Made by a program: the position numbers and the translations under genes
Virus record (IMG/VR): IMGVR_UViG_3300020200_000004
Origin: a virus
Taxonomy: Duplodnaviria; Heunggongvirae; Uroviricota; Caudoviricetes
Length of the DNA: 64,000 bases
Strand: one strand, 5' to 3'
The notes under the pieces: model-generated
The model's database searches: none
Told to the model about the DNA's origin: nothing
Seen by the model: only the letters and a program-made list of their open reading frames with translations
Part shown: in pieces, positions 480 to 58,094 of the stretch
Layout of the letters: each line of letters begins with the position of its first letter
Numbering within the stretch: position 1 is the stretch's first letter

Positions 480-1706
480 CTAACCATGCTTAAAAATATT
501 TTCATTATATAAATTTTTGAATTCTTTATTCAATTCTAGCAATCCTATTTCCCATATTCTTTTACCTCTTTCTTTTATATTGATTGCTGAATTTTTATCT
601 CTTCCTATAATAAAATTACATTTAGAACATTCAAAAGTTCTTGTGCCGCTTAATTTTTCATTTAAATGTTTGCAATTTGAGCAAAGCATTGTTGTATAAG
701 GTGTAGGCACTAATACAAATGGCAGTCCTTTATCTTCGCAAATTGTTATTAGCTTAGATATAATCTTGTCTTGACCAAAACTCCCATGCCTTTTACCTAC
801 TTTTAGATTATCAATGCATATGCAAAGTTGATTGTCTTCTATATGTTTAGTAATCTCCTTAACAATATTATCGTATAATCTTGTAAGTTTTTTGTGATAT
901 CTTTTTATTTTTTTCCATTTAGTAGTTTTATCTTTGTTAGCTGCTCTTAATTTGTTTTCTATGTTGCATATTCTTTTCATAATTGGATCATTTTTGGAAA
1001 TTATGTCTATTTTTCTTTCTTTAAAATTAATCATATCTGAAAAAACCATAAAAGTTTTTGGAGTTTTATTCAAATCGAATCCTAAAAAATCTTTGGGTTG
1101 ATATTTCCAAACCACAGGTTTTTTAGTTCTGGCGACAAAATAAAGCTTATTATCTATCGTTGTTAAATTGCCGCCTGCTTCTTCCTTAAGATATTCTTTA
1201 GACCTCATCATGGTGCCGAGCGGAATATCAAATGGAACCGATATATTCTTTTTATCCTTTGAAAAGAAAAATTTAAAATTAATTAACATTTTTTCTTTAT
1301 CAATAGAAACACATCCAGAATATATTTCTAATCCTTTATCATTTCTGTTTTTGAATTTAATATAAGAAGAAGATTTTTTGTTTCTTTTTATATAACTTTG
1401 ATATCTTTGCAGAACTTGCCTTAAAATTTGTCTTTTAATAGTTGTAATTGGTATGTTTTCTTTTTCTGCCAATAATTCTATTTCATTTTCATATAAATGG
1501 TCGGCTTGAGATTTTATGCTTTTAATTATTAGTTTTTTCGCTTTTAATTGTTTGAATACTTTTTTAGAAAAATGATCATACAAAGGAAATAAAAAATTCA
1601 GAAAATCTCTGTTGGTATTTAATAATTCTAGTTTTAAACATCTGTTCTTGGTTGTGCCAAATTTATAGTTGTTGTTTTGTATTTTGATTAATTCTTTTAT
1701 ATTCAT
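480..1706 (-). CDS. tnpB: TnpB-like RuvC nuclease (IS200/IS605 OrfB family), solo; no TnpA nearby
   Basis: 408 aa. RuvC-I-like FLGFDLN, RuvC-II-like ICIDNLKV (Asp where Glu is typical), zinc finger CSNC...CSKC, RuvC-III RDKNSAINI. Confidence 0.8.
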   Translation of the reverse strand: MNIKELIKIQNNNYKFGTTKNRCLKLELLNTNRDFLNFLFPLYDHFSKKVFKQLKAKKLIIKSIKSQADHLYENEIELLAEKENIPITTIKRQILRQVLQRYQSYIKRNKKSSSYIKFKNRNDKGLEIYSGCVSIDKEKMLINFKFFFSKDKKNISVPFDIPLGTMMRSKEYLKEEAGGNLTTIDNKLYFVARTKKPVVWKYQPKDFLGFDLNKTPKTFMVFSDMINFKERKIDIISKNDPIMKRICNIENKLRAANKDKTTKWKKIKRYHKKLTRLYDNIVKEITKHIEDNQLCICIDNLKVGKRHGSFGQDKIISKLITICEDKGLPFVLVPTPYTTMLCSNCKHLNEKLSGTRTFECSKCNFIIGRDKNSAINIKERGKRIWEIGLLELNKEFKNLYNENIFKHG

Positions 1707-5326: not shown

Positions 5327-5362
5327 GTGCCGTTCTATTCTTACGGGAATAGAAGGAAGCAC
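5327..5362 (+). promoter_or_regulatory. Conserved 36-nt hairpin element, copy 1 (UUACGGG loop; 3' arm overlaps the SD)
   Basis: gtgccgttctattcttacgggaatagaaggaagcac; 32 of 36 nt identical to 17143-17178; stem ttctattc/gaatagaa; AAGGAAG SD for GTG 5365 lies in the 3' arm. Confidence 0.5.
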
Positions 5363-5364
5363 CT

Positions 5365-6093
5365 GTGACAAACAATCTAATTAAATATCTGAATAAGCGT
5401 ATTATCCCTTGGCGAAACGATTTTGGGTTGCCAAGGGATATTGCCCATAAAACCCATAGCCCCGTTAATATTTTAATATTAAATGCGGCGACTGAGGTTA
5501 ATAGGTATAATTCACCTTTTTGGGCAACCAAGGAACAATGGAATTCAGTAGGTTGTAAAGTTAGATATTGGGAACAGCCAACTTTAAGTTATTACAACAA
5601 AGACCAAGTAGATGGAAGCTTTGCTTGTGCTGCTGACCCTGTTATGTCTTTTAATGAAGTTGATAAGTTAATTGTTGATACCAAGGTTAATATAAAGTTT
5701 TCGCATAAGCTTATTGCTGAATATCATTATCCACCCAATGATTACATTTTGTTTCCTTATAAAATTCATTTTGATATGGGAGAAGGTAAGGAAGCTGGGT
5801 ATTACAATGCAATTTTCCATGAATTAGCCCATTTTACAGAACCTAAATTGGGTTGGGAATCTGAAAAGTATGGTGTGCCGGTTACTGAGTTACGTGCTGA
5901 AATAGCTGCTGACTTCATCACTTCTTATCTGCGTCTCCCACGATTGGCTTTTAATTTAAGAAGTAACCATCACAAGTGGATGGCAGATTGGGTCATGGCT
6001 TTGTCCTATGCTCCAAATTTGCTTGTTGCGGCTGCTGCTTCGGCTTACAATGCATTTAGATTGATTGTGAAGAAATATGCTAACGTATATTGA
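5365..6093 (+). CDS. ArdC-like protein (N-terminal ssDNA-binding-like region plus HExxH metallopeptidase-like motif)
   Basis: 242 aa, GTG start; NRYNSPFWATKEQWNSVGCKVR resembles the ArdC-N (DUF1738) motif; HELAH motif downstream. Confidence 0.4.
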   Translation: MTNNLIKYLNKRIIPWRNDFGLPRDIAHKTHSPVNILILNAATEVNRYNSPFWATKEQWNSVGCKVRYWEQPTLSYYNKDQVDGSFACAADPVMSFNEVDKLIVDTKVNIKFSHKLIAEYHYPPNDYILFPYKIHFDMGEGKEAGYYNAIFHELAHFTEPKLGWESEKYGVPVTELRAEIAADFITSYLRLPRLAFNLRSNHHKWMADWVMALSYAPNLLVAAAASAYNAFRLIVKKYANVY

Positions 6094-6502
6094 AGGCGAT
6101 CTGTTTAATTCAAAATGCGAATATGTTATATGCACCGTGAACTGTATTGGTGTAATGGGAAAAGGAATTGCTTTAGAATTTAAGAAGCGATACCCAGAAA
6201 TGTACTTGGCTTATAGAGAGGCTTGTGATAAAGGGGAAGTTAAAATAGGAAAGATGTGGGTTTGGAATAATATTATAAATTTTCCCACTAAAGATGATTG
6301 GCGTAACCCTTCCAAGCTAGAGTATATTAAAGCTGGGTTGTTGGACTTGAAAGTGGTTGTAAGAGAAAGAGGAATAAAAAGTCTTGGGATGCCAAAATTA
6401 GGTTGCTCCAATGGAAAATTAACGTGGGAAGATGTTAAAAAGCTAATTGAGATATTTCATTCAGTGGTTCCAGAATTGGATTTGCAAGTTTATTTAAAAT
6501 GA
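6077..6502 (+). CDS. Macro-domain protein, OARD1/TARG1-like (terminal ADP-ribose glycohydrolase family)
   Basis: EGDLF...CTVNCIGVMGKGIALEFKKRYP and LGMPKLGCSNGKLTWEDV parallel human OARD1 EGDLF...[21 protein letters not shown] and LSMPRIGCGLDRLQWENV. Confidence 0.7.
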   Translation: MLTYIEGDLFNSKCEYVICTVNCIGVMGKGIALEFKKRYPEMYLAYREACDKGEVKIGKMWVWNNIINFPTKDDWRNPSKLEYIKAGLLDLKVVVRERGIKSLGMPKLGCSNGKLTWEDVKKLIEIFHSVVPELDLQVYLK

Positions 6503-7140: not shown

Positions 7141-7194
7141 GAACGGATGAAAAGTTTGATTTAGAGAAATGCAAGAAAGTTATAGAAAACATAT

Positions 7195-8241
7195 ATGAAA
7201 TTCACACATTTGCTAGAAATTAAATTAGGGACTTGGTTTGGCATCAAGGTTATTTTAGACTTATGTTTGGTTGTTTTATGGATAACCTTGGCGATAATAA
7301 ATTTCAGTTCTATTGCAATTATATTATCTGTTTATGCATTTGTGCTTTTGCATGAATTTGGGCATGCGTTAGTTGGTAGATATATGGGGTTAAATTGTTA
7401 TCAGATAAAGATATATCCATTTGGAGGGTGCGCCTCATTTAGTAGCGAAATGGATGTGGGATATAAAGAATTTTGGATGGTTGCTGCTGGTCCGTTTGTA
7501 AACATAGTATTGGCATATATCTTTTGTGGTTTGTATTTTGTTTGCCCAAGTTATTTTTTATCTCAATGCACCACTATTAATTTGGCATTAGCTATATTTA
7601 ATTTAGTCCCTCTTTTTCCTATGGATGGCGGGCGTCTTGCAAGAATAGTATTTAATAAAATATTCAACAATACAATAAAAGCTACTCGTTTAGTCAACAT
7701 TGTGGGAATACCCCTGGCTTTGGCCCTATTTGTATTAGCTGTATATTCTTCCAATTTCATTTTGGGCATTATTGCTTTAATAATGCCTTTGGCTGGTACT
7801 TATGAACTTTCTGAGTTAAAACATAAGAAAAAGGCAAAACTTTATTTAGAGGCAGCTTATGCAGCAAAGAATCATGATTATGAAACTCAAGAAAGAATAT
7901 CTAATGAATTACACAGTGACGGGACAAGTGATATAATTAAGAATTATTTTTATATCGAACCCGATTACAAACTGGATTATATCATAGAAGTTTTGGAAAG
8001 CGATTTGGAAGGATATAAAAAGACAGGAGAATTCTTGAAATTTGCTATAGATTTTCACAAGTCTGTAAATGAAAAATTAAAAACATTGCATAAAATGATA
8101 AATGAAGATTTCGCTGACGGAGTATATTACAGAACTAGATTGTGCATTGACAATTTACAGCATAGAGCTTACAGAAAAGAGTTGGAAGAAATTCTTGATA
8201 AGCGTGGTTATATGACAAGATATGCACCTTTTATTAATTAA
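7195..8241 (+). CDS. Site-2 protease family (M50) membrane zinc metalloprotease
   Basis: HEFGHAL (HExxH) in a hydrophobic segment plus NLVPLFPMDGG (LDG-type motif); multiple predicted TM helices. Confidence 0.7.
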   Translation: MKFTHLLEIKLGTWFGIKVILDLCLVVLWITLAIINFSSIAIILSVYAFVLLHEFGHALVGRYMGLNCYQIKIYPFGGCASFSSEMDVGYKEFWMVAAGPFVNIVLAYIFCGLYFVCPSYFLSQCTTINLALAIFNLVPLFPMDGGRLARIVFNKIFNNTIKATRLVNIVGIPLALALFVLAVYSSNFILGIIALIMPLAGTYELSELKHKKKAKLYLEAAYAAKNHDYETQERISNELHSDGTSDIIKNYFYIEPDYKLDYIIEVLESDLEGYKKTGEFLKFAIDFHKSVNEKLKTLHKMINEDFADGVYYRTRLCIDNLQHRAYRKELEEILDKRGYMTRYAPFIN

Positions 8242-14544: not shown

Positions 14545-14802
14545 ATGAAAATGCCGTACATCAAGCAAAAAGATCGACCGAAGTTTGATAGTGCATTAAA
14601 AGATTTCCCCGTTCCTGATACAGAAGGCGAACTTAATTATATTTTAACTAAGTTATGCCATCAGTATATCCAAAAAAAGGGAAAAACATATTCTACTTAT
14701 AATCAAGTCGTTGGCGTATTAGACTGCGCCAAATTAGAGATTTATAGACGACACGTTGGAATTTATGAAGATCAGAAAATTATTGAAAATGGTGACGTGT
14801 GA
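14545..14802 (+). CDS. Hypothetical protein (85 aa)
   Basis: ORF. Confidence 0.3.
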   Translation: MKMPYIKQKDRPKFDSALKDFPVPDTEGELNYILTKLCHQYIQKKGKTYSTYNQVVGVLDCAKLEIYRRHVGIYEDQKIIENGDV

Positions 14803-15065
14803 ATGTAATTTATTCAAACGAACCTTTTAAAAATCACTCTCCTTCTATCTTCCTTGCGGGGCCAACAGTTAGGCGGCAGGATTTAAAATCGTGGCGTCCT
14901 AAAGCTATTGAGTTCCTTATTAAAGAATTAGAATTCAAGGGCGCTATTTATGTCCCTGAGTGGAATAAAAACTTACAGCCAGTTGATTATTTAACACAAG
15001 TTGAATGGGAACATTTAGGACTTGAAAACGCTACTTATATTAGTCGTACATTTTCAGGAGTGTAG
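14799..15065 (+). CDS. Nucleoside 2-deoxyribosyltransferase-like, apparently truncated (88 aa)
   Basis: SIFLAGPTVRR resembles the NDT-family YLAGP motif; the ORF ends where a minus-strand ORF begins. Confidence 0.3.
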   Translation: MNVIYSNEPFKNHSPSIFLAGPTVRRQDLKSWRPKAIEFLIKELEFKGAIYVPEWNKNLQPVDYLTQVEWEHLGLENATYISRTFSGV

Positions 15066-15340
15066 CTTAACCTTGAATTGATTCTATCTATTGAGGGACT
15101 GTAAGGATTTGCTTTGCCATTGTTTGTTTCTGTTGGAATGATTAAAGGCAGGCCAGTTATAGCACAAAGCCCATTTTGTTTATCCCATAAATTGCAAAGA
15201 AAATTAGTTGAAATGTTAAATTCTATATTTTTTCTTTTTGCTCTCCTTTTTGCGATTCGATTTAGTTCCACTAAACGACCTTTTATGCTTAAATAATAGT
15301 TGTGCCTGTATTCTTGAGAATAGCTTTTATTGGCTTTCAT
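15035..15340 (-). CDS. Hypothetical minus-strand protein with degenerate HNH/EndoVII-like motif (possible endonuclease remnant)
   Basis: 101 aa; NGLCAITGLP...SIDRI is loosely like the CxxC...DHDH nuclease pattern; one of few minus-strand ORFs. Confidence 0.3.
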   Translation of the reverse strand: MKANKSYSQEYRHNYYLSIKGRLVELNRIAKRRAKRKNIEFNISTNFLCNLWDKQNGLCAITGLPLIIPTETNNGKANPYSPSIDRINSRLSYTPENVRLI

Positions 15341-17142: not shown

Positions 17143-17178
17143 GTGTCGTTTTATTCTTACGGGAATGGAAGGATGCAC
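17143..17178 (+). promoter_or_regulatory. Conserved 36-nt hairpin element, copy 2 (spans the start codon of the IDO-like gene)
   Basis: gtgtcgttttattcttacgggaatggaaggatgcac; 32 of 36 nt identical to 5327-5362. Confidence 0.5.
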
Positions 17179-18283
17179 AGCAACAGAGAGCAAACTAATG
17201 CGAAGTCACTTTTGGGATGTAGTGGTAAGGGGATTTTTACCCATTCGTGATCCTGTATTAAAGGGAGATTTATTTGAAAAAATACCCCTTACAGGATCAA
17301 GGAATGAAATATTTAATTATTTAAATCAAAATAAAGTTGATTTAACAGCATTTGTAAACAATGAAGAAGATTGTGAACGGCTCTTTAGAATGTATTCCTA
17401 TGCTGCTAGTGCCTTTATTCATTCCCAAAGTGAACCGCCTACAAACGTTCTACCAAAAGAAATAGCCGTACCTTTAGTTAAGTTCTCTCAGATACTAGAC
17501 AGAAAGCCAATTCTATCATATGGTAGCTATTGTTTAAATAATTGGCAAAGAATAGATGTTACCAAACCTGTAGAACTAGGTAATATTCGTTTATTGACGC
17601 ATTTTTGCCCTATTCCATATAATCGGGATGAAGCTTGGTTTATTCTGGTGCATGTGGATATAGAAAATTCAGCAGCTTTGGGTATTTTTGCTTGTCATTC
17701 GATGCTTTTGCAAGACCCCTTAACACCTGAATTTGCTTTCTTTGTGCTTAATCAGATAAAAACCAGTCTGATTAACATGAATAAAGCCTTGAATAGAATG
17801 CCAGAAGAATGTAGCCCAGAGCATTATTTTTTATTCGTTAGACCTTATATATTCAGCTTTGAAAATGTTGTTTATGAAGATTGTTTTCATGGTAAACCGC
17901 AAACTTTTAGGGGTGAAACAGGGGCACAAAGTTCTATAATACCTGCTTTTCTTGCAGCATTGGAGATAAAGCATAAAGATTCAATGTTGACTCATCATTT
18001 GCAGGAAATGCGGGATTATATGCCTAAAGACCATCGCATTTTCCTGAATAATTTAGAAAATAGTTCTGTGCATCTAAGGGAAGTGGCTAAGAAAGACAGC
18101 AAGTTAAAGCCTTTATATAATGAATGTTTAATGCAACTTATTGATTTTAGAGAAAAACATTTTGAATATGCTATTAACTATATTGCTAATAAAGTAGAGA
18201 ATCCTAAAGGTACAGGAGGAACACCTTATGTGCCTTGGCTTAAGCAGCTGAAAGAAGAGACTAAGCAGCAAATTTTGGAGTAA
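17165..18283 (+). CDS. Indoleamine 2,3-dioxygenase (IDO)-family heme dioxygenase-like protein
   Basis: GETGAQSS, LQEMRDYMPKDHRIFL and KGTGGTPYVPWLKQLK parallel human IDO1 GGSAGQSS, LQDMRRYMPPAHRNFL and KGTGGTDLMNFLKTVR; a His is present where IDO has its proximal His. Confidence 0.65.
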   Translation: MEGCTATESKLMRSHFWDVVVRGFLPIRDPVLKGDLFEKIPLTGSRNEIFNYLNQNKVDLTAFVNNEEDCERLFRMYSYAASAFIHSQSEPPTNVLPKEIAVPLVKFSQILDRKPILSYGSYCLNNWQRIDVTKPVELGNIRLLTHFCPIPYNRDEAWFILVHVDIENSAALGIFACHSMLLQDPLTPEFAFFVLNQIKTSLINMNKALNRMPEECSPEHYFLFVRPYIFSFENVVYEDCFHGKPQTFRGETGAQSSIIPAFLAALEIKHKDSMLTHHLQEMRDYMPKDHRIFLNNLENSSVHLREVAKKDSKLKPLYNECLMQLIDFREKHFEYAINYIANKVENPKGTGGTPYVPWLKQLKEETKQQILE

Positions 18284-18285
18284 AC

Positions 18286-18420
18286 ATGAAAGATTATTTA
18301 AGGACAATCAAGCTTGGCATCGGAGAAGGTGAACCCGGCAAGCAAGCATGTTGGATGAGTGCCCTTTCTGCGCATTTGGGCGGGGAATGGACAGATAGTT
18401 TGGAATGTGTTGATCCTTAA
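18286..18420 (+). pseudogene. Truncated member of a local paralog family (44 aa: MKDYLRTIKLGIGEGEPGKQACWMSALSAHLGGEWTDSLECVDP*)
   Basis: N-terminal homology to 47403.. and 48392..48943; stops where the paralogs continue. Confidence 0.45.
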
Positions 18421-19034
18421 ACTTTGAGGCAAATGGTCCTGGGTGGAGAGGAGACAATTATTATTTAACAGAAAAAGAAAATAATTGTTCGGTTTGTGGA
18501 GCTACAGAAGAATTAACTCGGCATCATGTTGTTCCATACAGTTATAGAAGATATTTCCCAGAAGAAGTAAAATCACATAATCATCATGATATTGTGCTTT
18601 TATGTGTTCCTTGCCATACCGAATATGAACGTGAGGCACGTAAATTTAAAAAGCAAATTATAATTAAGTATGGCATTTCGGTTAATGGTACTGGATATCA
18701 ATATGACCATGAAATAGCAATAGTTAAAAGGTTTTCTGGTACTTTATTGGAACATGCCGCTTTAATCCCACAAGCTAGAAAAGAGGAAATGTACCAAGTT
18801 ATAAAGGATTATTGCAAAAAAGATGTGACGACAGAAGATATGAAAAAGCTGGTTGAGACTTTAAACCCACATACATACTCAGAAGATCATTTAAAACATG
18901 CAGATGCAATTGCAAAACTGGTTGATATTCAGGAATTTGCTAGAGAATGGAGACAGCATTTTATTGATTCTATGCAGCCTAAATTCTTACCGCTTCATTG
19001 GGATGTGAATCGTTCTGTTTATAAGGAAAATTAG
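18414..19034 (+). CDS. HNH endonuclease domain ORF without a canonical start (frameshifted fusion to the upstream paralog fragment, or a remnant)
   Basis: Open frame reads ...DNYYLTEKENNCSVCGATEELTRHHVVPYSYRRYFPEEVKSHNHHDIVLLCVPCH (HNH motif). The N-terminal stretch DNYYLT resembles paralog NDLYYMDNK. No ATG, and no GTG/TTG before the internal GTG 18594 at which the ORF track opens this ORF. Confidence 0.45.
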   Translation, partial: SLNFEANGPGWRGDNYYLTEKENNCSVCGATEELTRHHVVPYSYRRYFPEEVKSHNHHDIVLLCVPCHTEYEREARKFKKQIIIKYGISVNGTGYQYDHEIAIVKRFSGTLLEHAALIPQARKEEMYQVIKDYCKKDVTTEDMKKLVETLNPHTYSEDHLKHADAIAKLVDIQEFAREWRQHFIDSMQPKFLPLHWDVNRSVYKEN

Positions 19035-19457: not shown

Positions 19458-21386
19458 ATGTTATTTTATGGTATTGTTGCTGGAATTTGCTTTGTAGCTT
19501 TTCTGATCTTTGTATGGCTTACTACAAGATACATACCTAATAACAAAATAGGTATTGTAGAGAAACTATGGTCCAGAAAAGGATCATTAGGCGAAGGTGA
19601 AATTGTTGCCTTGAAAGGTGAAATTGTTGCCTTGAAAGGTGAAGCTGGATTCCAACCAGAAGTCCTAAGAGGCGGCATTCACTTTGGTTATTGGAGATGG
19701 CAATATGCTGTCCACAAACGCAATTTGATTACTATCAGGCAAGGCAAGATTGGTTATGTATTCTCTAGAGCCGGACAGCCTTTATCTGCAACTCAAACAT
19801 TATGTAAATATGTTGAATGTAATAACTTCCAGAACGTAAAAGCTTTTCTTTCTAATGGCGGTCAGAAAGGTCGTCAAAGAGCAATTTTGCGTGAAGGTGT
19901 ATATGTTATCAACACAGCTATTTTATCTGTAATCACTGAACGGATTGTTTATTCAATGATTACGGATAAAGATGTTAACTTAAATGAATGGCAAAGTCAG
20001 CTAGCAGCAGTAAAAGGTTTTGATCCTATTATCATTGGTCATTCTTCCAATGAATCAGATGATATTGGCATTGTGACTACTCATGATGGTCCTGCTTTGG
20101 AAGATGGAGAAATCATTGCACCGGCAGTAGGCACATCTTCTTCTGATTCAAATTACCATAATAATTACCAAGATATTGAAGCGTTCTTAAGAGCGGGTGG
20201 CAGAAGAGGTTTGCAATATGCCACACTTTTAGATGGTACTTATTTCATTAATAGGTGGTTTGCTACTGTTGAACATATTAAAAAGGCAGTTGTTCCTATA
20301 GGTTCAGTAGGAGTTGTAGTAAGCTATTATGGGCGTCAAGGGGCTGATACTTCTGGAACTCAATTTAGGCATGGCGAAAGGGTACATCAAGGCGAAAAGG
20401 GTGTTTGGGAATCTACTCTTGGGCCTGGCAAGTATCCCTTTAACAATTATGCAGGCCAGATCATTTTAGTACCTACTACCAATTTCGTGCTGCATTGGGT
20501 GACAGGCAAGAGTGAATCGCACAAATATGATGAAAGTTTAAAGTCTATAGATTTAATTACTAAAGATGCTTATGAACCACTTTTGCCTTTAAGTGTGGTG
20601 GTGCATATTGATTACCAGAAAGCACCTAGCGTTATTCAAAGATTTGGTGATGTTAAGCAGCTTATTACGCAGACTTTAGACCCATTGTTAAGTGCTTATT
20701 TCAGGGACGTGGCACATAAAAAGACTATGCTTGAGTTAATCCATTCTAGAGACGAAATTCAAGCGCAAGCCAGGAAGGAATTGCAGGCTAAGTTTTCCCA
20801 ATTTGATATTGAATGTGTTGATGTTTTAATTGGTCGCCCCGAATCCTATTCAGATGATGGCAAAATTGAGAATTTACTTGAGCAATTGAGGTTAAGGCAA
20901 TTAAGTCTTGAACAAATTGAGACTTATAATAAGCAAAAGCAAGCAGCAACTACAGAACAGACTTTAAATGAAGCTTTGGCCCATGCTGCTATGCAAAAGG
21001 AATTAACGGGTTCTAAGATTCATATTGAGATTACTTCTAATAATGCCGAAGCTGATCTTGCTAAGGCCAAGAAAGAGGCAGAAAAGACGATTGTTATTGC
21101 AAAAGCAGATAGCGAAAAGGCTAAATTGCAAGGTGTTGGTGATAGTTCTAAAATTCAATTGGTAGGTAGTAGTGAAGCTGAGGTTTTGCAGAAGAAGATT
21201 GCTTCTTTTGGTGATTCTAAACTTTATGCTTTGTCCGTGATTGCTGAAATGCTTTCTAATAGCAAGCAACCTTTAGTGCCTTCTACTATGTTGGGTGGCA
21301 ATAATTCTAATACATTATTGACTGCTTTAATGTCCTTAATGGTTAATGAAAAATTAAGTGTTTCTCCACAAGAGCCTCAAATTTAA
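19458..21386 (+). CDS. SPFH/band-7 flotillin-like membrane protein
   Basis: N-terminal TM helix, SPFH-like core (IGIVEKLWS...QPEVLRGGIHF), C-terminal Ala/Lys/Glu-rich coiled coil like YqiK/flotillin; contains a 2x21-bp tandem repeat (GEIVALK x2). Confidence 0.6.
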   Translation: MLFYGIVAGICFVAFLIFVWLTTRYIPNNKIGIVEKLWSRKGSLGEGEIVALKGEIVALKGEAGFQPEVLRGGIHFGYWRWQYAVHKRNLITIRQGKIGYVFSRAGQPLSATQTLCKYVECNNFQNVKAFLSNGGQKGRQRAILREGVYVINTAILSVITERIVYSMITDKDVNLNEWQSQLAAVKGFDPIIIGHSSNESDDIGIVTTHDGPALEDGEIIAPAVGTSSSDSNYHNNYQDIEAFLRAGGRRGLQYATLLDGTYFINRWFATVEHIKKAVVPIGSVGVVVSYYGRQGADTSGTQFRHGERVHQGEKGVWESTLGPGKYPFNNYAGQIILVPTTNFVLHWVTGKSESHKYDESLKSIDLITKDAYEPLLPLSVVVHIDYQKAPSVIQRFGDVKQLITQTLDPLLSAYFRDVAHKKTMLELIHSRDEIQAQARKELQAKFSQFDIECVDVLIGRPESYSDDGKIENLLEQLRLRQLSLEQIETYNKQKQAATTEQTLNEALAHAAMQKELTGSKIHIEITSNNAEADLAKAKKEAEKTIVIAKADSEKAKLQGVGDSSKIQLVGSSEAEVLQKKIASFGDSKLYALSVIAEMLSNSKQPLVPSTMLGGNNSNTLLTALMSLMVNEKLSVSPQEPQI

Positions 21387-24869: not shown

Positions 24870-26042
24870 ATGCTTGTAGCAGAACGACATTATATACAAG
24901 AAACACTTGAAATTGTCCGACTATGTACATTAAGCAAAGAACTTTACAATAAATGCAATTTCTTGATGAGGCAAGCATGGTTTATAAATGAAAAATTACC
25001 TAATATAAATTTGCTTGTTCGAGAGACAAAGCCATTAGACTGTTACAAAAACCTTCACAACACCAAAACAGCAGCACAAACAATACGTAAATGTCTTGTA
25101 GATTGGGCAAACTTCCTCAAAACCCTGAAAGCATACAAGAAAGACCCAACAAAATTCAAAACTAGACCTAAACCGCCTTATTATAAAAATAAACTCACAC
25201 AAATTATATTCTTTAATGAAACTATCAAGAAAAGACCATTGAAACAAGATGTAATTACCCCAACGAACAATCTATTTTCAATTAAAAGTGACATTAAAGA
25301 ATTTAAGCAAGTAATGATTACTCCTAAAACATTTGGTTTTATAGTAGACATTCAATATGAAAAAGAAGTCAAGAAAGTAAAAGTAAGCAAGAATAGGTTT
25401 GCCTGTATAGATGTTGGTGTAAATAATTTAGCTACGATAACTTCAAACCAACTGGAGCATCCCATATTGGTTAATGGTCGCATACTAAAAAGCATCAATA
25501 GATTCTATAATAAAAAACCTAATAAGAATAATAGTAGGAAACGTTATTTCCGTATTGAGAATTATTTCCATCATGCTTCTAAATTTATAATTGATTTATG
25601 TATTAAACATAAAATTGGCAAAATCATTATCGGTAAGAATGATGGTTGGAAGCAATTTTCTAAAATACGAAAAGTACAAAACCAAAATTTTCAATATATT
25701 CCTTTTTATAAATTTTTAGATAAGATTAAGTATAAAGCAACATTAGCGGGCATTGAAGTTATATTTACTGAAGAATCATATACAAGTAAAGCAAGTTTCC
25801 TTGACCATGATTCAATACCAACTTATAAAAAAGGCAATAAACCTCCTACTTTTTCTGGTAAAAGAGATAAAGGAATGTATAGAACATTTAGACCTATTCA
25901 TGCTGACGTGAATGGAAGTTTAAACATAGGATGTAAAGTATTCGGGGATAAAGTCTACAAGGCTTTCCCTGATAGGAGCATTGCCGCAATGCCAGTACGA
26001 ATTAATCCATTGAAGATTTTTGCATATAACAGCAAAAATTAG
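24870..26042 (+). CDS. tnpB: TnpB-like protein (OrfB_IS605 family), apparently nuclease-dead (TldR-like)
   Basis: 390 aa. RuvC-I FACIDVGVNNLA and RuvC-III HADVNGSLNIGCK are present. The RuvC-II position reads KIIIGKNDGW (Gly where the catalytic Glu is expected). The zinc-finger cysteines are absent (ESYTSKASFLDHDS...). Confidence 0.65.
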   Translation: MLVAERHYIQETLEIVRLCTLSKELYNKCNFLMRQAWFINEKLPNINLLVRETKPLDCYKNLHNTKTAAQTIRKCLVDWANFLKTLKAYKKDPTKFKTRPKPPYYKNKLTQIIFFNETIKKRPLKQDVITPTNNLFSIKSDIKEFKQVMITPKTFGFIVDIQYEKEVKKVKVSKNRFACIDVGVNNLATITSNQLEHPILVNGRILKSINRFYNKKPNKNNSRKRYFRIENYFHHASKFIIDLCIKHKIGKIIIGKNDGWKQFSKIRKVQNQNFQYIPFYKFLDKIKYKATLAGIEVIFTEESYTSKASFLDHDSIPTYKKGNKPPTFSGKRDKGMYRTFRPIHADVNGSLNIGCKVFGDKVYKAFPDRSIAAMPVRINPLKIFAYNSKN

Positions 26043-29038: not shown

Positions 29039-29803
29039 ATGAAAAGTGACTTTGCAAAAATCGTAACGGAGAGGCCAAGAGCAGGGGGCGGCTATAAAAA
29101 CCCAAAAGGTTGGAATGCCCGTTCTCAACATCGTACTGCCAATCAATGTGAACAGGAAAACTGGCCCAAAAGGGAAAAAATCCGACAAAAATGGCAGTCC
29201 AGTTTCGGTGAGAAACAATTCACCGATGTTCTTGGCCCTCTCTACGGTTATCTTTTAAAGCAAGTTGGGCGTCATTGGGATGATGTATTTTCCGAAATCT
29301 GCGAGAATCTACCAGCCAATAACACCAATACCAGCCATGTCAGGGACCACGTTTTCGATTTCGTTGAGGTTGACGTGGTTATGGTTGATGGCGTTCCTTG
29401 TTATCGCAGAAGCTTTGGAAAATATACTTGGTTAAAGAAACAAGAATGGACTCCCTTGAGCGTCTATGGAAGTCGCCAATTCCAATTGTATGTTAATCCC
29501 GAAAATGGTTTACTCTGCAAACTTGAGAAAAAGAAAGAAGTCAAGAAGGACAAAAAAGAAGGCAAAGGTGTCATTGTAGACGATACCCATCAATACCATA
29601 AGATTGATGGAGTTTGGTATCTGTTGGCACTTAAGATCGTTAACCGTCATCCTGAATATTACGAACTTTTCTATGATGTTGGTTACAAAAAGAACTTTCG
29701 TGACTCTGAAATGTTCCGCCATTATGGAAAACGTTGCTATTGCATTCACAAAACTCAATTAAACAAACGACAAATCAAAAAGGCTAAATTAAATGGAGAA
29801 TAG
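29039..29803 (+). CDS. Hypothetical protein (254 aa)
   Basis: ORF. Confidence 0.4.
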   Translation: MKSDFAKIVTERPRAGGGYKNPKGWNARSQHRTANQCEQENWPKREKIRQKWQSSFGEKQFTDVLGPLYGYLLKQVGRHWDDVFSEICENLPANNTNTSHVRDHVFDFVEVDVVMVDGVPCYRRSFGKYTWLKKQEWTPLSVYGSRQFQLYVNPENGLLCKLEKKKEVKKDKKEGKGVIVDDTHQYHKIDGVWYLLALKIVNRHPEYYELFYDVGYKKNFRDSEMFRHYGKRCYCIHKTQLNKRQIKKAKLNGE

Positions 29804-30218
29804 GCCATTAATAGGTGTCGCTACTTGTATTTTCAAAGACGGTCAAGTTTTATTAGGTTTGCGTAAAGGTAAGCATGCCAATAATACATGGGGATTTCCT
29901 GGCGGGCATCTTGAATTCGGAGAAAAAATAGAAGATTGTGCCAGAAGAGAAATAGCTGAAGAAGTTGATGTGGAAGTAAATTGTTTAAGTTTTATATCAG
30001 TTGTTGGCAATGTTTATGAAGAAGAAAATAAACATTATTTGACAATACTTTATACAGCCAATTATGTTTCTGGTGATTTAACAGTAAAAGAACCAGATAA
30101 ACACTTGGAATGGAAATGGTTTCCCATCTGTGATTTGCCAGAAAACTTAATGCCTCCTGCCAAGAAATTTTTGAAGGAACTTAGTAAAGATACTTTGTGT
30201 TCGGTTATAATTGAATGA
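29793..30218 (+). CDS. NUDIX hydrolase
   Basis: Nudix box GFPGGHLEFGEKIEDCARREIAEEVDV (Gx5Ex7REUxEExGU). Confidence 0.8.
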   Translation: MENRPLIGVATCIFKDGQVLLGLRKGKHANNTWGFPGGHLEFGEKIEDCARREIAEEVDVEVNCLSFISVVGNVYEEENKHYLTILYTANYVSGDLTVKEPDKHLEWKWFPICDLPENLMPPAKKFLKELSKDTLCSVIIE

Positions 30219-35231: not shown

Positions 35232-35924
35232 ATGTTGAATGAAAACAAGATGGACCTTAATTTATTTTGCAATAATCCAATATCAGCGATAAGGGCTATT
35301 TTAGCATGGCATTGGGGCAATCCTTTAATTGGCGAAGGTAATCTTTCTAAAGACTTAGTAAGGGGATTACGTCTTACTAATAAATTTTGCAATGGTGATA
35401 CCGATAATTTTACTCAATGGGATTTTTGGATTTTTCTTGATGAAAATGGAAAGAAAAGATGTAGCAAATGTCAAATAACAAAAGATACAGAAGATTTTAA
35501 AACTTCCAATAATTCCAAAGATGGTTACAAATCTGCTTGTATGAGATGTGAAAAAAATAGTGATTTGCTGAGCCAATATGGTATAACTTTGAAGCAATAT
35601 GAGGCAATAGAAAAGAATCAAAATCATTGTTGTGCTATATGTGAATCAAAAGACTCAAAAATTCCTAGAAAACATAGAAAAACTAAAATAGATGTATTTT
35701 GTGTAGACCATGACCACGATACAGGCGAAATAAGAGGTTTACTTTGTTTTAATTGTAATACTGGATTAGGGCAGTTTAAAGATTCTGCCGATGTTCTGGG
35801 AAACGCTTTGTGTTATTTGAGGAAGTTTAATTGTACCAAGAACGAGAAAAGTTCAACGAACAATCAAATAGGAAATACAAATGATTTTGGTACAGAACCC
35901 ATTGAATTTGGAAAAGTCTGCTGA
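35232..35924 (+). CDS. Recombination endonuclease VII-family protein (C-terminal EndoVII domain)
   Basis: HCCAICES...VDHDHDTGEIRGLLCFNCNTGLG matches the EndoVII CxxC...DHDH..G..RGLLC..CN..LG signature. Confidence 0.7.
   Translation: MLNENKMDLNLFCNNPISAIRAILAWHWGNPLIGEGNLSKDLVRGLRLTNKFCNGDTDNFTQWDFWIFLDENGKKRCSKCQITKDTEDFKTSNNSKDGYKSACMRCEKNSDLLSQYGITLKQYEAIEKNQNHCCAICESKDSKIPRKHRKTKIDVFCVDHDHDTGEIRGLLCFNCNTGLGQFKDSADVLGNALCYLRKFNCTKNEKSSTNNQIGNTNDFGTEPIEFGKVC
35827..35840 (+). promoter_or_regulatory. Conserved motif TTAATTGTACCAAG, copy 6 (inside the 3' end of the EndoVII ORF)
   Basis: Exact 14-mer 40 nt upstream of ATG 35881. Confidence 0.45.
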
Positions 35925-37920
35925 TGTTAAGCCATCTACTTTTAGGATTAAAGCGTCTCAAAAAGCTTTTGCGATCTTGTCGTCTGGTTTATATTCAGAT
36001 AAGGTGTCATCGACCATCCGTGAATTGTCTACCAATGCCGCTGATGCCCATATCGCTGCTGGCAACAAGGAATCTTTTACCGTTCATCTGCCCAATACCC
36101 TTGAACCATTTTTCTCCGTAAAGGACAATGGCACTGGACTTTCCGAACATCACCTTAATACCCTTTATACAACCTATTTTGAATCAGATAAAACTCATTC
36201 AAATGACTTTACTGGTTGCTTGGGATTGGGCAGTAAGAGTCCATTTAGCTATACCGATCAATTCACCGTTGAAAGCCGATTCAATGGCAACAAGTATACC
36301 TATAGTTGCTTCATTGATCAGGATGGATTGCCTTCTATCGCCAAGATGGGTGAAGAAGTTACTGAAGAATCCAACGGTCTAGAAGTTAAGTTTGCTGTTA
36401 AAAGTTCTGATTTCTGGGAATTTCAGAATAAGGCATCAAATATTCTATCTTGGTTTAATCCTCAGCCTAATGTTGTTGGCGTTGCTGGGTTTGAACTTAC
36501 GCAACGAGAATACATTAGGAAAACTGATAAGTATGCTCTCCGCAAGGAAAAGCATTATGGTGATGCGAGCCGATTGATCATGGGTAATGTTGCTTATAAG
36601 CTGTCTACCTACAGTCTTGGCAACAAGGTTAGTTTGGATGAACTTGACCGGCAGATTCTAGATTGGGGCTGTGAAATCTTTGTCCCAATTGGCACTGTTG
36701 AAGTAACTGCAAACCGTGAAGATATTACTTATACTGAAAATAGTGCTAAGGTCATTAAGGAATGTCTTGCTGAAGCTGTCAAGGATGTTAGGGGAGAAAT
36801 TGATAACATGATAGCTTCCGCTCCTACAATTTGGGAAGCTAGGCGTGTTCTCCATGATTCTCACCATTCCATCATTGGCAAGATTAAGAATTTAACTTCT
36901 GCTACTTGGAATGGTCAGGAAATTCATAGTTATGTAAGTTCTGCCAAGTGGAATGAAAAGAACCCTGACAAGGAAATTAATATTCAGTTTTTGCGACGTA
37001 AGAAGGAACGTTTCGCAAAGAGCAATGGGCATAGCCACATTCACGCTGATAACAAGCCCATTTATGTGAATGACTTGGGGCATGGTGGTTACACAAGGGT
37101 TTTGCATGATTTAAATAAGAAACGCACAGATGAAGCTTACTTGCTGCAAAACAATAACGTAAGTTTCTTGGAAGAAGCTGGACTAAAAGAAATTGTAATT
37201 CGTGCTAGTTCTTTACCTAAGCCTGAAAGCAAGCGTTCTTATGTTCCACGTCGCAAGGGAGTAAGGGCACAGCTTAATCGTTGGGTTGAATCTCATTCCT
37301 ATAAAAAAGAAGCTTGTTCATATTGGCAACCAGCTGACGTTGATTTGGAACAAGGTGGCATTTATGTAGAAATGTCTTACTATAAATATACGTTGTTTGG
37401 TAATGAAGGTAATAGCCCAGACGGTTTGGAGTCTACCATCAGCGCTTTGTCGGCTTTCCATGAATCTGAGGATGGAAAATTGGAAGTTTTTGGAATTCGT
37501 TCGGCTGATAAGAAGATTCTGGAAAAGATGGATAACTGGATTAGCCTTGACGATTATATCAAGGAAGTTGTTGAAGCTAATGAATATCTTGATGCCACTA
37601 TCAAGATGAATAATGAATGGACTCATTATCGTGACAATCTTGCCGAAGCTTTCTTTAATGATGATTTGAGTGAAAAAACCTTATTTGGCCGTTATGTGGA
37701 ATATTGCAAAAAGGCTTACAAGGCTCATTCCAGTGAAAGTCGGGCATATATTAGACTGTGCGGTTTGGTTAATAAGAACATTGGAACTGGAACTAAGTTA
37801 AAGGAAATGCGGGATGAATTGCAGGCCAAGTATCCTTTGATTAGTTTTCTTAGTTCTTACGATACTCCTTACAACAGTAAAACTTTTAAGGCAGCACTTT
37901 TGAAATATGTGAAGGAGTAA
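35881..37920 (+). CDS. GHKL-family ATPase (Hsp90-like N-terminal ATP-binding domain)
   Basis: 679 aa; N-box IRELSTNAADAH, G1 box VKDNGTGLS, G2-like GCLGLGSKSPFSY (compare Hsp90 ELISNASDA / DTGIGMT / GQFGVGFYSAF). Confidence 0.5.
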   Translation: MILVQNPLNLEKSADVKPSTFRIKASQKAFAILSSGLYSDKVSSTIRELSTNAADAHIAAGNKESFTVHLPNTLEPFFSVKDNGTGLSEHHLNTLYTTYFESDKTHSNDFTGCLGLGSKSPFSYTDQFTVESRFNGNKYTYSCFIDQDGLPSIAKMGEEVTEESNGLEVKFAVKSSDFWEFQNKASNILSWFNPQPNVVGVAGFELTQREYIRKTDKYALRKEKHYGDASRLIMGNVAYKLSTYSLGNKVSLDELDRQILDWGCEIFVPIGTVEVTANREDITYTENSAKVIKECLAEAVKDVRGEIDNMIASAPTIWEARRVLHDSHHSIIGKIKNLTSATWNGQEIHSYVSSAKWNEKNPDKEINIQFLRRKKERFAKSNGHSHIHADNKPIYVNDLGHGGYTRVLHDLNKKRTDEAYLLQNNNVSFLEEAGLKEIVIRASSLPKPESKRSYVPRRKGVRAQLNRWVESHSYKKEACSYWQPADVDLEQGGIYVEMSYYKYTLFGNEGNSPDGLESTISALSAFHESEDGKLEVFGIRSADKKILEKMDNWISLDDYIKEVVEANEYLDATIKMNNEWTHYRDNLAEAFFNDDLSEKTLFGRYVEYCKKAYKAHSSESRAYIRLCGLVNKNIGTGTKLKEMRDELQAKYPLISFLSSYDTPYNSKTFKAALLKYVKE

Positions 37921-39301: not shown

Positions 39302-42300
39302 ATGTCGCAATTTAAGACAGTTGAGAATTTTAAGGATATTTTAATGTTAAAAGAAAAAACTACTTTGCGATCCTATCAGCTGCTTCTATTAGATAATCAT
39401 GATTTAGTAGAAAAGACGATAGATGTTTATACAAAAGGAGCTTCTGCTTGGTTGGACTTTTGGCTTACTGTTTTGGGCGGTATAGAATTTGAGATGATTC
39501 CATTATCTCCTCTTAGCAGTTATTGTATTACTAAAAAATTAAAGAGGAAATCCCAAGAAGATAAAGAAATATTTATTCCTATTAGCGAAGAAGCTTTATT
39601 GTTTGGCTGTTGGTTTTCTTTAGAAACGAATAGCAATTCGCCATTCATTATTTCTGTTCAAGATGTTTGGAACAAGTTCAAATCTTATCTGCCGAATAAT
39701 GTGAAAATAAGCTACAATTGGGAAAGAACTATCAAAGCACAAATTAATTCCTTTGTGTCTGAGAATACTTGTTGGGTAGATAGAAGAAAAGCATTTCAAG
39801 ACCTATCATTTAAAATTAATGTTGCTGATCTTGTTTGTAAAAAAGATTTTTGGCTTAATAAAGATGTGGATAGCAAATTGTATATGAGAAGTGCCTTGGG
39901 GCAATGGTGGAATGATGGAACAAAATCAGATTGGGTTAATCTTAAAATTAAATGTGAACAGTCTATAAAATTTATCGAACAAGAATCAGATATCAGAAAT
40001 GCAAAAACAAAAATTCTACAATCTCTTGGATTGCCAGATATAGCAGAAGCTAAAGAAATTGGCAAAGCTTATGGCAAAAAAGGAAAGCCTTCCAGAGTGT
40101 TTATTAAATTGGAAAAATTAACAGAAGATACTACCAAAGACCAATTGGTTAAGGAATTTCAAGAAGAAATTGTAAACGCAGAAGAACATGTTGCTTTTAA
40201 GCGTTGTCCCTGGCATGCGAAAATTAGAGAAAACATTGAAAAAGCAATAGGTGTAAGTTATTTTAATGAAAAAGGTAATAGTAGTCAAAATAATTTTGGA
40301 GAAATGGGCAATCTTGCTCTTGAAAAAATTAAAAGTTGGAAATCTAATTTTTTTAATGTCTTAGGAGAAAGATATCATAACTGTAAATCTGATTTCCATG
40401 ATTCAGAGGTAAAAGAATGGTTTGAAGAATACAAAAAAACAAACAAACAACTTAGAAATAGCAGCCTTTCAGGACTTGAAAAAGTATTTGATTTACTAGA
40501 TAACAAGTCTTTTGAAGATGCTATTAAAGAAGCCCAAAAATCCTACAACATTCTTGGAAGAAGATTTGGAGACGCTAACTTTTTCAACTTTTTAGGCAAT
40601 AAAATTCAGTCCAGAAAGGACAAAGATTGGTTGAAATTAATACGAGAATATGATAATTGGGATAATGTAAATTACAAATTTATAAATCATAAAAGTCCAA
40701 GACTTAAGCATTTTGGGGATGATCACTTAGCCACTCCTAGATTTGGGGAGTCAAGACCAACAGGCAATATCAAAAGCACAACTGGAAATAGTCACTCAAT
40801 TACATTGAATGTTTTCGATGGCAAATCATTCAAACTGACTAAAATTAATTCTGCTTGCAAAAGATTGTCTAATGAAATTAAAGATAATCAATCAATTAGA
40901 CAGACTAAGTTATCTGGAAAAATCTTTGAAAACTATCGAATTCTTCCTAAGAGTTTAGTTAAAAAGGGTGGACTTAAACTTTGTAAACAAAATGATAAAT
41001 GGTATGCCCATCTAACAGTCAATTTGCCAGTATTTGAAAAAGCTTCATGGCAAAAATTGATGAAAACCGGCACCATAATAATGAGTATAGACCCTGGTAT
41101 TAGAAGTTCTATATCATATACTATATTTGAAATATTTGAATGTGATCGAGATACAGATTATTTTATTGAAAATGGCATTACTCATGTGAAAATACATTCA
41201 TGGGAAGATCATAGTGGTACTAAGTTTAAAGTGCCTCATAATAATTTGTGGGTTAAATTGTTGGAATGGGGACATATTCGTGATCTACAACCTATTGGCG
41301 AAAATGGTTATCGTCAGTGCAGATTAGATGGTGGAACAAACACCAATTTAGACTCAGAAGAAATAGAATTTTGGAAATATCTTTTAATAACTGGTGTTGA
41401 GCAAAAAGACATGCCTGATCCTTTGCCAAAAAGGTCTGAATATTCTAGAATTATTGCAAATTTAATTAACAAGTGGTATACAAACAAATCAAAAGAAATT
41501 ACAGATAAGGTTAAACAACTAAATATTAATGATCCTGTAGAGTTTTCAAAAACTTTACAACATGTAAGAAAAGAAAGCGATTTATCATCAGAATTATTGA
41601 TAAAGGCGTCCCAAATATTATTTGTAAATAATTCAGATAAAATTGGGAGAGGCGGGTTATCCTATGCTAGAATTAAGATGCTCCAAACACTTTCTTCTGC
41701 TTGTAATAAATTCTTAAAAGTTAAAGAAAATAATGCAGAAATTATTGAATTTCAGAATTTTCTTAGAAAGAAAATTAATGCCATAAGAACGGAACGAGTA
41801 AGAATTACTGTAAACAAAGTTTTGCATGAAGCTGTCAATAACAAAGTAAATCTAATTCTATATGAAAATACCCAACTAAAATCTTCTTCCAGTTCCCCCA
41901 GAGGTCTTAATAGAAGTATAACATCCTGGTGCCCGTCAAAAGTAATCGAAGAATTGAAAAAACAAATAGATTTGTTGCCAATTTCTATAATGGGAGTAAA
42001 CTCTGCTTATACGTCTCATAACTGTTTTGTAACTTGCAAGAAAAAATGTCGTTATGATAAAGTTCATTTAGATGATCTTAATATTGAGCCTTGGAAAGAA
42101 AGAATAACCGATATTTTTACAAAAAAACAATTAAGCTTAACTGATTGTTTGTTGAAAAAAGGTTGGGAAAATTTCCTGAAAGAAAATGACTTGATGAGCT
42201 ACAAACAAATACCTGAATTTGTTAAAAACAAAAAAGCTTTTTGTTTAGTTCCCTCCAGGACAGGAAAATTGTTTGTTACAGAAATTGGAGAATTGAATGC

Positions 42301-44534: not shown

Positions 44535-44670
44535 TCCAAGCAGCAACATTCCTGATCGTTTAGCTGAAATTTATAGTAAAGATGATCCTGTGCCGCCTCA
44601 AGTATGGGAAGCAGTTAAAGAAGTCCGAAAAGGAATGGGCATGATGTGGCATTACGCAGGAGATTAATTT

Positions 44671-46077: not shown

Positions 46078-46151
46078 GCCCCTGTAGTTTAATTGTGCAA
46101 AACGTGCTACTTTAGATAGCTAAGATGTGGGTTCGAATCCTGCCAGGGGCG
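46078..46151 (+). tRNA. tRNA with predicted anticodon UUA (ochre/UAA-suppressor-type)
   Basis: Cloverleaf by hand: acceptor gcccctg/caggggc, D-stem gttt/aaac, anticodon stem gcta/tagc with loop cTTTAga (U33, anticodon TTA, R37), variable loop aagat, T-arm gtggg-ttcgaat-cctgc. One t-t mismatch at the top of the anticodon stem. Confidence 0.5.
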
Positions 46152-48147: not shown

Positions 48148-48390
48148 ATGTCAAAGTTAACTGTTAGGACTATCTTTAATGGTGCAATGAATGCCAAGTA
48201 TGAAGTTAGTATTCCTCTTAACAAGAAAGAAACAGAGGAACTTAAAAGTGCTTTGGAAGTGGTAAGAAAGTATGAGAAACAAGCTTTAGACGCCACAAAG
48301 GTATCTAGAAAGACAGAAGCAGTTGTAATTGATTATCTGGTTAAATCAAATAGTGTGCTTATCTCTGTTGAAGCTGGAGGTTTTGGTTAA
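48148..48390 (+). CDS. Hypothetical protein (80 aa)
   Basis: ORF starting 12 nt after the orphan repeat. Confidence 0.35.
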   Translation: MSKLTVRTIFNGAMNAKYEVSIPLNKKETEELKSALEVVRKYEKQALDATKVSRKTEAVVIDYLVKSNSVLISVEAGGFG

Positions 48391-48391
48391 A

Positions 48392-58023: not shown

Positions 58024-58094
58024 GGCCCCATAGCTTAAGAGGAAAGCAGGGTGCTTATAACGCCAAGACGGTAGTGCGACTCTACCTGGGGCTA
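58024..58094 (+). tRNA. tRNA, predicted anticodon UAU (Ile, AUA-reading); short
   Basis: Acceptor ggcccca/tggggct, D-arm gctt-aagagga-aagc (GG in loop), anticodon loop cTTATAa, T-arm ggtag-tgcgact-ctacc; the anticodon stem has one mismatch and one G-U pair. Confidence 0.45.

Follow-up and report, generated by a model that had tools for sequence, protein, structure and literature searches.

Indoleamine 2,3-dioxygenase (IDO) catalyzes the same reaction as tryptophan 2,3-dioxygenase (TDO, KynA). TDO is tetrameric, has no small domain, and contacts the indole N-H with a distal histidine. Known phage auxiliary metabolic genes serve photosynthesis, nucleotide, sulfur, and carbon metabolism, and NAD+ salvage. 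Here we analyzed a 64,000-nt stretch of a Caudoviricetes virus (IMG/VR record IMGVR_UViG_3300020200_000004; the whole stretch is referred to as the window) and found that it carries a full-length gene of the IDO family (Table 1). Human IDO1 and IDO2 (PF01231; PDB entries 2D0T, 6E46, and 9UYY) share with the window IDO the family, the fold, the proximal histidine, and the GTGG(T) JK-loop, and the equivalents of human R231, F163, and R343 are conserved. In contrast, the window IDO is phage-encoded, is 22-25% identical to the two human enzymes, has a shorter N-terminus, and differs from IDO1 at four distal-pocket positions, where S167 is replaced by His, C129 by Tyr, F226 by Tyr, and G262 by Glu. 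TDO has a His at the position equivalent to H163 of the window IDO, but it belongs to a different family and gave no Pfam or PDB sequence match here.

Bacterial IDOs have been treated by Yuasa, Ushigoe, and Ball (2011; here as cited in PMC4191572). Those of Gemmataceae (P0071 and P0103) were 47-49% identical to the window IDO, had the same length, and carried the same invariant residues. They lie among chromosomal genes (RND pump, PSCyt2/PSD1/DUF1501, ThrRS, and S18) in DNA with a guanine-plus-cytosine (GC) content of approximately 60%, whereas the window IDO lies in phage DNA of 35% GC. The nearest kin are the IDOs of a huge-phage lineage (UViG_3300020172_001601, 340 kb; UViG_3300017388_000001, 436 kb; UViG_3300046517_002304, 511 kb; and others; 51-58% identity to the window IDO), which, like the window IDO, are phage-borne and under purifying selection. 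However, IDO occupies a fixed slot of a conserved gene block in that lineage, whereas the window has none of those neighbors and its backbone resembles the IDO-less phage assembly LR756511.1 instead of the block-bearing lineage.

An IDO fold is also virus-encoded in Catovirus CTV1 and in Harvfovirus, but these viruses have eukaryotic hosts and their proteins are about 18-22% identical to the window IDO. In BFVD, the IDO fold was present only in giant eukaryotic viruses, as this Catovirus IDO and this Harvfovirus fusion. The Harvfovirus sp. protein (A0A3G5A0E3, 768 aa) is annotated as a tryptophan-tRNA ligase and holds an IDO-fold domain (TM 0.74 to our model); it is a natural fusion joining tryptophan charging and tryptophan degradation in one virus.

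Identity and Active Site of the Window IDO

The only Pfam family matched by the window protein was PF01231 (E=5e-58; 197.3 bits, with the cut-off at 26; positions 59-361 of the 412-position profile), and no NCBIfam model matched. When the single sequence was searched against the PDB, human IDO1 and IDO2 were the only matches (E 4e-25 to 6e-23). A profile built from an alignment of 37 homologues matched the same two proteins at 164-169 bits, with profile positions 35-385 aligned to IDO1 positions 40-400 (E~5e-47). The AlphaFold2 model derived from these 37 homologues had a mean confidence (pLDDT) of 86.4 and a predicted TM-score of 0.88, with pLDDT values below 50 confined to residues 1-14. The top 50 Foldseek matches of the model in the PDB were all IDO1 or IDO2 (probability 1.00; TM 0.65-0.79, with values of 0.74-0.79 for the better matches), and the model adopts their two-domain all-helical fold. 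All 79 invariant columns of the 37-sequence alignment are kept. These results confirmed that the open reading frame (ORF) encodes a full-length IDO-family protein, far beyond chance resemblance.

Membership in two other families was rejected. The PrnB entry 9dfg reached only 12.8 bits (E=0.48) in the profile search that gave 164-169 bits for IDO1 and IDO2, and no TDO appeared in the Pfam scan (E<=1) or in the PDB searches (E<=10).

Residues were mapped by HMMER alignment to IDO1, with 10 added to the numbering of the 6cxu chain to obtain native positions, a conversion that was checked against 5ek2 (Table 1). The first-pass annotation, made from the letters alone, had called the gene IDO-like on the basis of three segments resembling IDO1 signature regions and a His at the heme-ligand position. 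All three segments were located in the ORF, H332 aligned with the proximal ligand of IDO1, and the ligand and substrate residues were kept on alignment. A stronger profile match to an unrelated family was also looked for, and IDO alone stood at the top, so the proposed identity holds. The residue set that binds L-Trp is present (R226, F159, Y221/F222, T252, and T350), and the changes F226Y and S263T are conservative. In an alignment of 203 homologues from prokaryotes and viruses, H332, H163, R226, R329, Y119, F159, Y221, E251, T252, and the GTGGT motif were invariant except in one gapped sequence. Because the catalytic and ligand residues do not vary in this set, the window protein is in every way typical of the prokaryotic IDO subfamily.

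The signature distal Ser167 of mammalian IDO1 is absent, with H163 in its place. The distal Ser167 is dispensable for catalysis, and the best PDB profile match, IDO1 entry 6cxu, itself carries His at position 167 of its sequence. The distal His marks a subfamily difference that is compatible with IDO membership.

Phage Context of the Gene

Nearly all ORFs of the window lie on one strand, and the GC content is approximately 35%. The ORF at 35881-37920 encodes RIIA (phrog_612, E=3e-117), and the window also encodes a clamp-loader subunit, a sigma factor, a DUF5131/Gp37-Gp68-type protein, an ArdC-like metallopeptidase, and EndoVII/HNH nucleases. The closest relative of this RIIA (37% identity) is found on LR756511.1, the 595,163-bp assembly of an uncultured phage. 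Twelve window proteins matched within 42 kb around the RIIA gene of LR756511.1 (30-57% amino acid identity) with their order broadly kept, and the collinearity extends to both sides of IDO. The distance between the AAA ATPase and sugar-epimerase genes is 16.8 kb in the window and 2.4 kb in LR756511.1; IDO sits inside this extra stretch, and tblastn detected no IDO in LR756511.1. The gene is thus a metabolic gene embedded in a phage genome, with phage genes on either flank, and the carrier is probably a huge phage of more than 500 kb. The phage-like context that the first-pass annotation had noted was borne out by RIIA, by the 12 roughly collinear genes, and by a Cas12i-like gene with a CRISPR array.

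The IDO gene has a GC content of 0.349 and a third-position GC content (GC3) of 0.263, compared with 0.358±0.037 and 0.289±0.057 for the genes of the window. Because its composition equals that of the surrounding genes, IDO is a fully ameliorated, long-resident accessory gene and not part of a chimera. A bacterial or chimeric contig was rejected on the basis of the collinearity with phage, of this composition, and of a leader hairpin shared with a second gene of the window. Closer relatives of the carrier were not detected, either by megablast of 10-30 kb of window sequence against GenBank phage records or by a search of IMG/VR with the window AAA ATPase.

Occurrence of IDO in Phages and Cells

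That IDO is not an expected phage gene had been proposed in the first-pass annotation, and the public record agrees with this: tblastn with the window IDO gave no match in 50,697 GenBank phage records, PHROGs holds no family for IDO, and full-text searches of the available literature turned up no publication that describes an IDO encoded by a phage or kynurenine genes of jumbo or huge phages. Nevertheless, phage IDO is not unique to the window; it recurs in huge phages from IMG/VR and from metagenomes. A scan of IMG/VR with the single window sequence found nothing, whereas an alignment-based scan recovered 12 contigs with IDO, eight of which are 58-511 kb long and encode proteins 44-51% identical to the window IDO. 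The closest database proteins were 51-59% identical, and those among them that were looked up (P0001, P0002, P0005, P0008, and P0013) sit on phage-like contigs. No record of the exact window protein was present in the contig index; with best identities of 54-59%, no close relative of the IDO of this phage is available.

All-against-all comparison of the loci showed that at least nine contigs (L001, L002, L004/L096, L005, L007, L010, L011, L099, and L101) share one gene block. In this block, PhageMetallopep, DHH, two proteins of ~380 aa, S21, peptide deformylase, and a membrane protein precede IDO, and dCMP deaminase, a thiamine pyrophosphate (TPP) enzyme of 544 aa, IF3, an Fe-S assembly protein, and aldehyde dehydrogenase follow it. 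The contigs of this lineage reach 511 kb and have GC contents of 37-51%. The TPP decarboxylase and the aldehyde dehydrogenase near IDO could point to further aromatic or indole metabolism. On other viral contigs (L006/L097, L009, and L012-L015), IDO lies in different surroundings. There was no synteny between the window and any IDO-bearing locus; the genes neighboring IDO elsewhere that also occur in the window encode a pyruvyl transferase (L006), an EndoVII-like protein (L011), and an M50 peptidase (Acidobacteriota).

In four genomes of Acidobacteriota (L029, L031, L038, and L062, at ~7147-8050), a homologue (E~1e-17 to 1e-18) of the window M50-type peptidase (7195-8241, + strand) immediately follows IDO at a distance of 28 nt. 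In the window this gene is 9 kb away from IDO, and the link to the Acidobacteriota arrangement is perhaps a coincidence.

In cells, IDO is uncommon yet widespread. At least 590 IDO stretches were detected among 185,579 GTDB species representatives, in groups that include Planctomycetota, Acidobacteriota, SAR86, Bacteroidia, the Candidate Phyla Radiation, Chloroflexota, and archaea, and about 2,080 IDO clusters at 50% identity were present among 1.84 billion representatives. The statement that IDO genes are rare in bacteria is therefore right in relative terms, but it understates a family with at least 590 occurrences across many phyla.

A neighbor-joining tree was constructed from 92 context-labeled sequences (347 columns, 300 bootstraps). 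The window IDO grouped with five IDOs of the huge-phage lineage carrying S21 and peptide deformylase (bootstrap 98%). A wider clade (80%) contained all large-phage IDOs together with four IDOs of Gemmataceae/Planctomycetota, and 72 other bacterial and archaeal IDOs fell outside it. The phylogeny against bacterial IDOs that had been suggested as a check thus places the window gene with huge phages and then with Gemmataceae. For the Gemmataceae copy P0071, the surrounding genes are unmistakably those of a planctomycete chromosome. In contrast, the IDOs of four IMG/VR contigs of 8-17 kb (L012-L015) grouped with SAR86 (bootstrap 89%), suggesting a separate, independent acquisition by marine phages. 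These four IDOs are 34% identical to that of the window and have a SAR86-like GC content of ~0.36.

The ratio of nonsynonymous to synonymous substitution rates (dN/dS) was 0.047 for the pair L006/L097 and ~0.15-0.22 in five other comparisons with unsaturated dS, four of which involve the window gene; dS was saturated in the remaining pairs of phage IDOs. The phage copies are under purifying selection. The best explanation for these data is that IDO is not a recent pick-up and belongs to a clade common to several huge-phage lineages and Gemmataceae chromosomes; in this phage it occupies an accessory stretch specific to the lineage. The phage IDOs also point toward a connection between phages and the patchy occurrence of the family among bacteria.

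Proposed Function and Alternative Explanations

The gene product is probably an active heme b dioxygenase that belongs to the prokaryotic IDO subfamily and works on its own, and a huge phage would carry the gene as an auxiliary metabolic gene. The most likely function is the conversion of Trp to N-formylkynurenine. From sequence comparison we infer heme binding, the substrate, the product, and the role in infection as follows. H332 would ligate heme supplied by the host. R226 would hold the carboxylate of L-Trp or a close indoleamine, the T350 loop would hold its amino group, and H163 may touch the indole N1, as in TDO. O2 would then be inserted across C2-C3, and the resulting N-formylkynurenine could either build up or be taken over by enzymes of the host. 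On balance, Trp/indole would be drained during infection from the pool of the host into the kynurenine branch, and the roles we prefer are a supply for de novo NAD+ synthesis or the elimination of Trp/indole. Among cellular homologues with a metabolic role, the chromosomal IDOs of Gemmataceae are linked to the phage enzymes by phylogeny (bootstrap 80%).

Several observations weigh against this assignment. The distal pocket is unlike that of human IDO1 (S167H, C129Y, F226Y, and G262E), so the substrate preference could differ. Pfam scans of window ORFs with 75 aa or more detected no gene for kynurenine formamidase, kynureninase, KMO, HAAO, or NadC in the 64 kb; the window IDO would thus work by itself and rely on the host for the later steps. 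Clustering of bacterial IDO neighborhoods revealed no consistent pathway and no kynurenine operon. Likewise, Pfam, PADLOC, and PHROGs indicated no functional link between the window IDO and its neighbors, and PADLOC and PHROGs did not connect IDO with defense or anti-defense. The tree was built by neighbor joining on corrected p-distances and not by maximum likelihood, and a larger neighbor-joining tree of 203 sequences did not resolve the position of the window IDO within the clade. As to individual bacterial neighborhoods, SAR86 IDOs lie next to genes for malate synthase, DUF1330, and an FAD monooxygenase, and those of Acidobacteriota next to aldehyde dehydrogenase and the M50 peptidase. The near neighbors of the window IDO encode a phosphoesterase (phrog_547), small ORFs without known function, an HNH nuclease, and an SPFH protein.

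The pocket differences could also mean that the protein performs other chemistry within the heme-dependent aromatic oxygenase fold, such as the oxidation of indole or its derivatives or a PrnB-like rearrangement toward a secondary metabolite, or that it is a non-catalytic O2/heme binder like the molluscan IDO-like myoglobin. H163, Y122, Y221, and E251, which distinguish the protein from IDO1, are invariant across the prokaryotic subfamily, and a review describes IDO-like myoglobin and proposes broad indole oxidation for ancestral IDOs (PMC4191572). We nevertheless consider such divergent chemistry unlikely and rank it lower, because R226 and T350 (GTGGT), which bind the amino acid part of Trp, are invariant and argue for an amino acid substrate. 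In addition, PrnB matched at E=0.48 compared with ~1e-47 for IDO1 and IDO2. A distal His is moreover what TDO, a true Trp dioxygenase, uses.

A second explanation is a more specific version of the tryptophan dioxygenase assignment and shares its enzymology. It holds that the phage IDO drives Trp into a host route from kynurenine to quinolinate and thereby sustains NAD+ at times when NAD+-depleting immunity or ADP-ribose chemistry of the phage itself operates. The Trp-to-quinolinate pathway is present in some bacteria, and NAD+-reconstitution pathways of phages are known. The window does encode proteins of NAD/ADP-ribose metabolism, all on the + strand, namely Macro (6077-6502), NUDIX (29793-30218), and ADP-ribosylglycohydrolase (52310-53233, E=6e-62), together with a truncated ORF resembling nucleoside 2-deoxyribosyltransferase (14799-15065, +). 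However, these ADP-ribose genes are scattered, none adjoins IDO, and they are common in large phages; the window also contains no other de novo NAD+ gene at the Pfam scope given above. IDO had no match in PADLOC, which carries little weight because PADLOC models defense systems and not anti-defense genes. On this evidence, a dedicated NAD+-supply or anti-defense role is rather doubtful.

It is very improbable that the gene is a neutral passenger, that it is a hitch-hiker in decay, or that it is bacterial and came into the phage contig by mis-assembly: although it lies in a variable accessory stretch near an HNH endonuclease gene (15035-15340) and small ORFs and has no neighbor in common with other IDO-bearing phages, its frame is intact with 79 of 79 invariant columns, dN/dS in phage copies is far below 1, its composition matches the surroundings, its leader hairpin recurs at a second gene of the same phage, and the tree places it with huge-phage IDOs and not with any bacterium.

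The tryptophan dioxygenase assignment can be extended to a broader scenario, which we regard as speculative and on balance improbable in its entirety: IDO might be a long-retained auxiliary metabolic gene of apparently freshwater huge phages, exchanged among phages and Planctomycetota, that controls host Trp/indole. One possibility is that such control feeds de novo NAD+ against NAD+-depleting immunity. Another possibility is that it starves the host or competitors of Trp; animal immunity uses IDO-mediated Trp depletion, which is offered here as a parallel, as is the giant-virus fusion of TrpRS with IDO. The intact and constrained state of the phage IDO and its recurrence, at a fixed position in one huge-phage lineage and in other surroundings elsewhere, speak for a benefit that very large phages draw from controlling Trp/kynurenine chemistry.

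The enzyme family itself is known, but its carrier is unexpected, and no earlier report was found of a phage with a heme dioxygenase that opens the tryptophan ring. The huge-phage IDOs form a recurrent and so far undescribed set and are a candidate means of rewiring host tryptophan metabolism. A compact prokaryotic-type IDO of 361-372 aa with a TDO-like distal His should also be useful for comparing the mechanisms of IDO and TDO. The claim is modest in scope, since the family is familiar and the role in infection is one that we infer.

Start Codon and Leader Hairpin

The start codon of the gene had been placed at 17165, inside a conserved hairpin. The N-termini of 36 homologues begin 2-4 residues ahead of a conserved Trp (W17 in the window IDO), and ATG 17198 fits this pattern better than ATG 17165. 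The low pLDDT of residues 1-14 is in line with this. A second copy of the hairpin in the window has ATA where the first has ATG 17165. Together, the homologue N-termini and this ATA make a start codon inside the hairpin doubtful; as read from the sequence, the true start is probably ATG 17198, downstream of it.

The hairpin itself is real. The segment 17143-17176 folds with -13.9 kcal/mol (z=-5.1), and none of 200 shuffled sequences folded as well. Within a 121-nt context, the region as a whole was unexceptional (z=-1.3), yet the same hairpin was retained. The two copies are identical at 32 of 36 positions, and two changes in the 9-bp stem preserve pairing (C-G/U-G and U-A/U-G). A search of the window that tolerated up to 12 mismatches gave no further copies, and the hairpin had no match in IMG/VR and no Rfam family. 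The leader contains no sigma-70-like promoter scoring above shuffled sequences, and no intrinsic terminator was found. The earlier description thus stands for the hairpin, with its strong fold and its second copy, but not for the position of the start. The hairpin appears to be a 5'-leader element that two accessory genes have in common, placed right against the translation-initiation region of each, and it could act as a translational operator or an mRNA-stabilizing stem-loop.

Table 1: Features of the IDO gene, its product, and its leader in the window, with human IDO1 equivalents.
Feature	Position	Strand	Remarks
IDO-family ORF	17165..18283	+	372 aa from first ATG; stop TAA; no interruption (ORF list)
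Probable true coding sequence	17198..18283	+	361 aa, start M12
Leader hairpin	17143..17178	+	5+9 bp stem, UACG loop; overlaps ATG 17165; ends ~20 nt before ATG 17198
Second hairpin copy	5327..5362	+	2 nt upstream of GTG start of ArdC-like gene (5365-6093)
H163 codon, distal-pocket His	17651..17653	+	Human IDO1 S167; His in TDO
GETGAQSS active-site loop	17912..17935	+	Residues 250-257; aligns with human 261-268 GGSAGQSS
LQEMRDYMPKDHRIFL segment	17999..18046	+	Residues 279-294; human counterpart LQDMRRYMPPAHRNFL
H332 codon, proximal heme ligand	18158..18160	+	Aligns with human IDO1 H346
KGTGGTPYVPWLKQLK segment	from 18206	+	Residues 348-363; human counterpart KGTGGTDLMNFLKTVR
KGTGGT JK-loop motif	18206..18223	+	Human T379 there contacts substrate amino group
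Human Y126 to Y119; C129 to Y122			HMMER alignment
Human F163 / F164 to F159 / I160			HMMER alignment
Human F226 / F227 to Y221 / F222			HMMER alignment
Human R231 (carboxylate binding) to R226			HMMER alignment
Human G262 to E251; S263 to T252			HMMER alignment
Human R343 to R329			HMMER alignment
Human T379 (GTGG loop) to T350 (GTGGT)			HMMER alignment

Other Features of the Window

A type V CRISPR-Cas locus lies directly downstream of RIIA, with a Cas gene at 39302-42364 (+) and an array at 42714-44535 (+). The C-terminal RuvC region of the 1020-aa Cas protein matched Cas12i (PADLOC, E=4e-24) and Cas12b models, and the protein had no Pfam, PHROG, or PDB sequence match. The array contains 26 copies of a 37-nt repeat (GTTGCAATAGATTAAAACAATGTGCTGTTATTGGCAC) separated by spacers of ~36 nt. 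Two genes for TnpB/Cas12f-like transposon nucleases (phrog_506, Cas12f1-like TNB domain) were located at 480-1706 (-) and 24870-26042 (+).

Transfer RNA sites were detected at 46078-46151 (+) and 58024-58094 (+). ARAGORN called a suppressor tRNA with anticodon TTA, which reads UAA, and the second tRNA was detected by Rfam only. Despite the suppressor, TAA is the commonest stop codon (39 of the 66 called genes, IDO included).

The 15-nt motif TTTAATTGTACCAAG occurs at 11 sites on the + strand (3716, 4099, 28182, 32191, 33622, 35831, 48944, 56902, 58673, 61359, and 62514). Its core, TTGTACCA, is present 13 times on the + strand and once on the - strand, mostly 10-60 nt upstream of ATG starts, and the motif thus seems to mark promoters or transcription starts in this phage. 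The stretch from 4.1 to 28.2 kb is free of such sites, so that IDO has none in front of it.

Just after IDO, a 44-aa ORF (18287-18421, +) resembles the N-terminal parts of two paralogues (47472-48095 and 48329-48943) and seems to be part of a broken gene within the 310-nt spacer. Further downstream, the SPFH/band-7 gene contains a perfect 21-nt tandem duplication (2.4 copies; 19594-19643, +) with the repeat GEIVALKGEIVALKGE.

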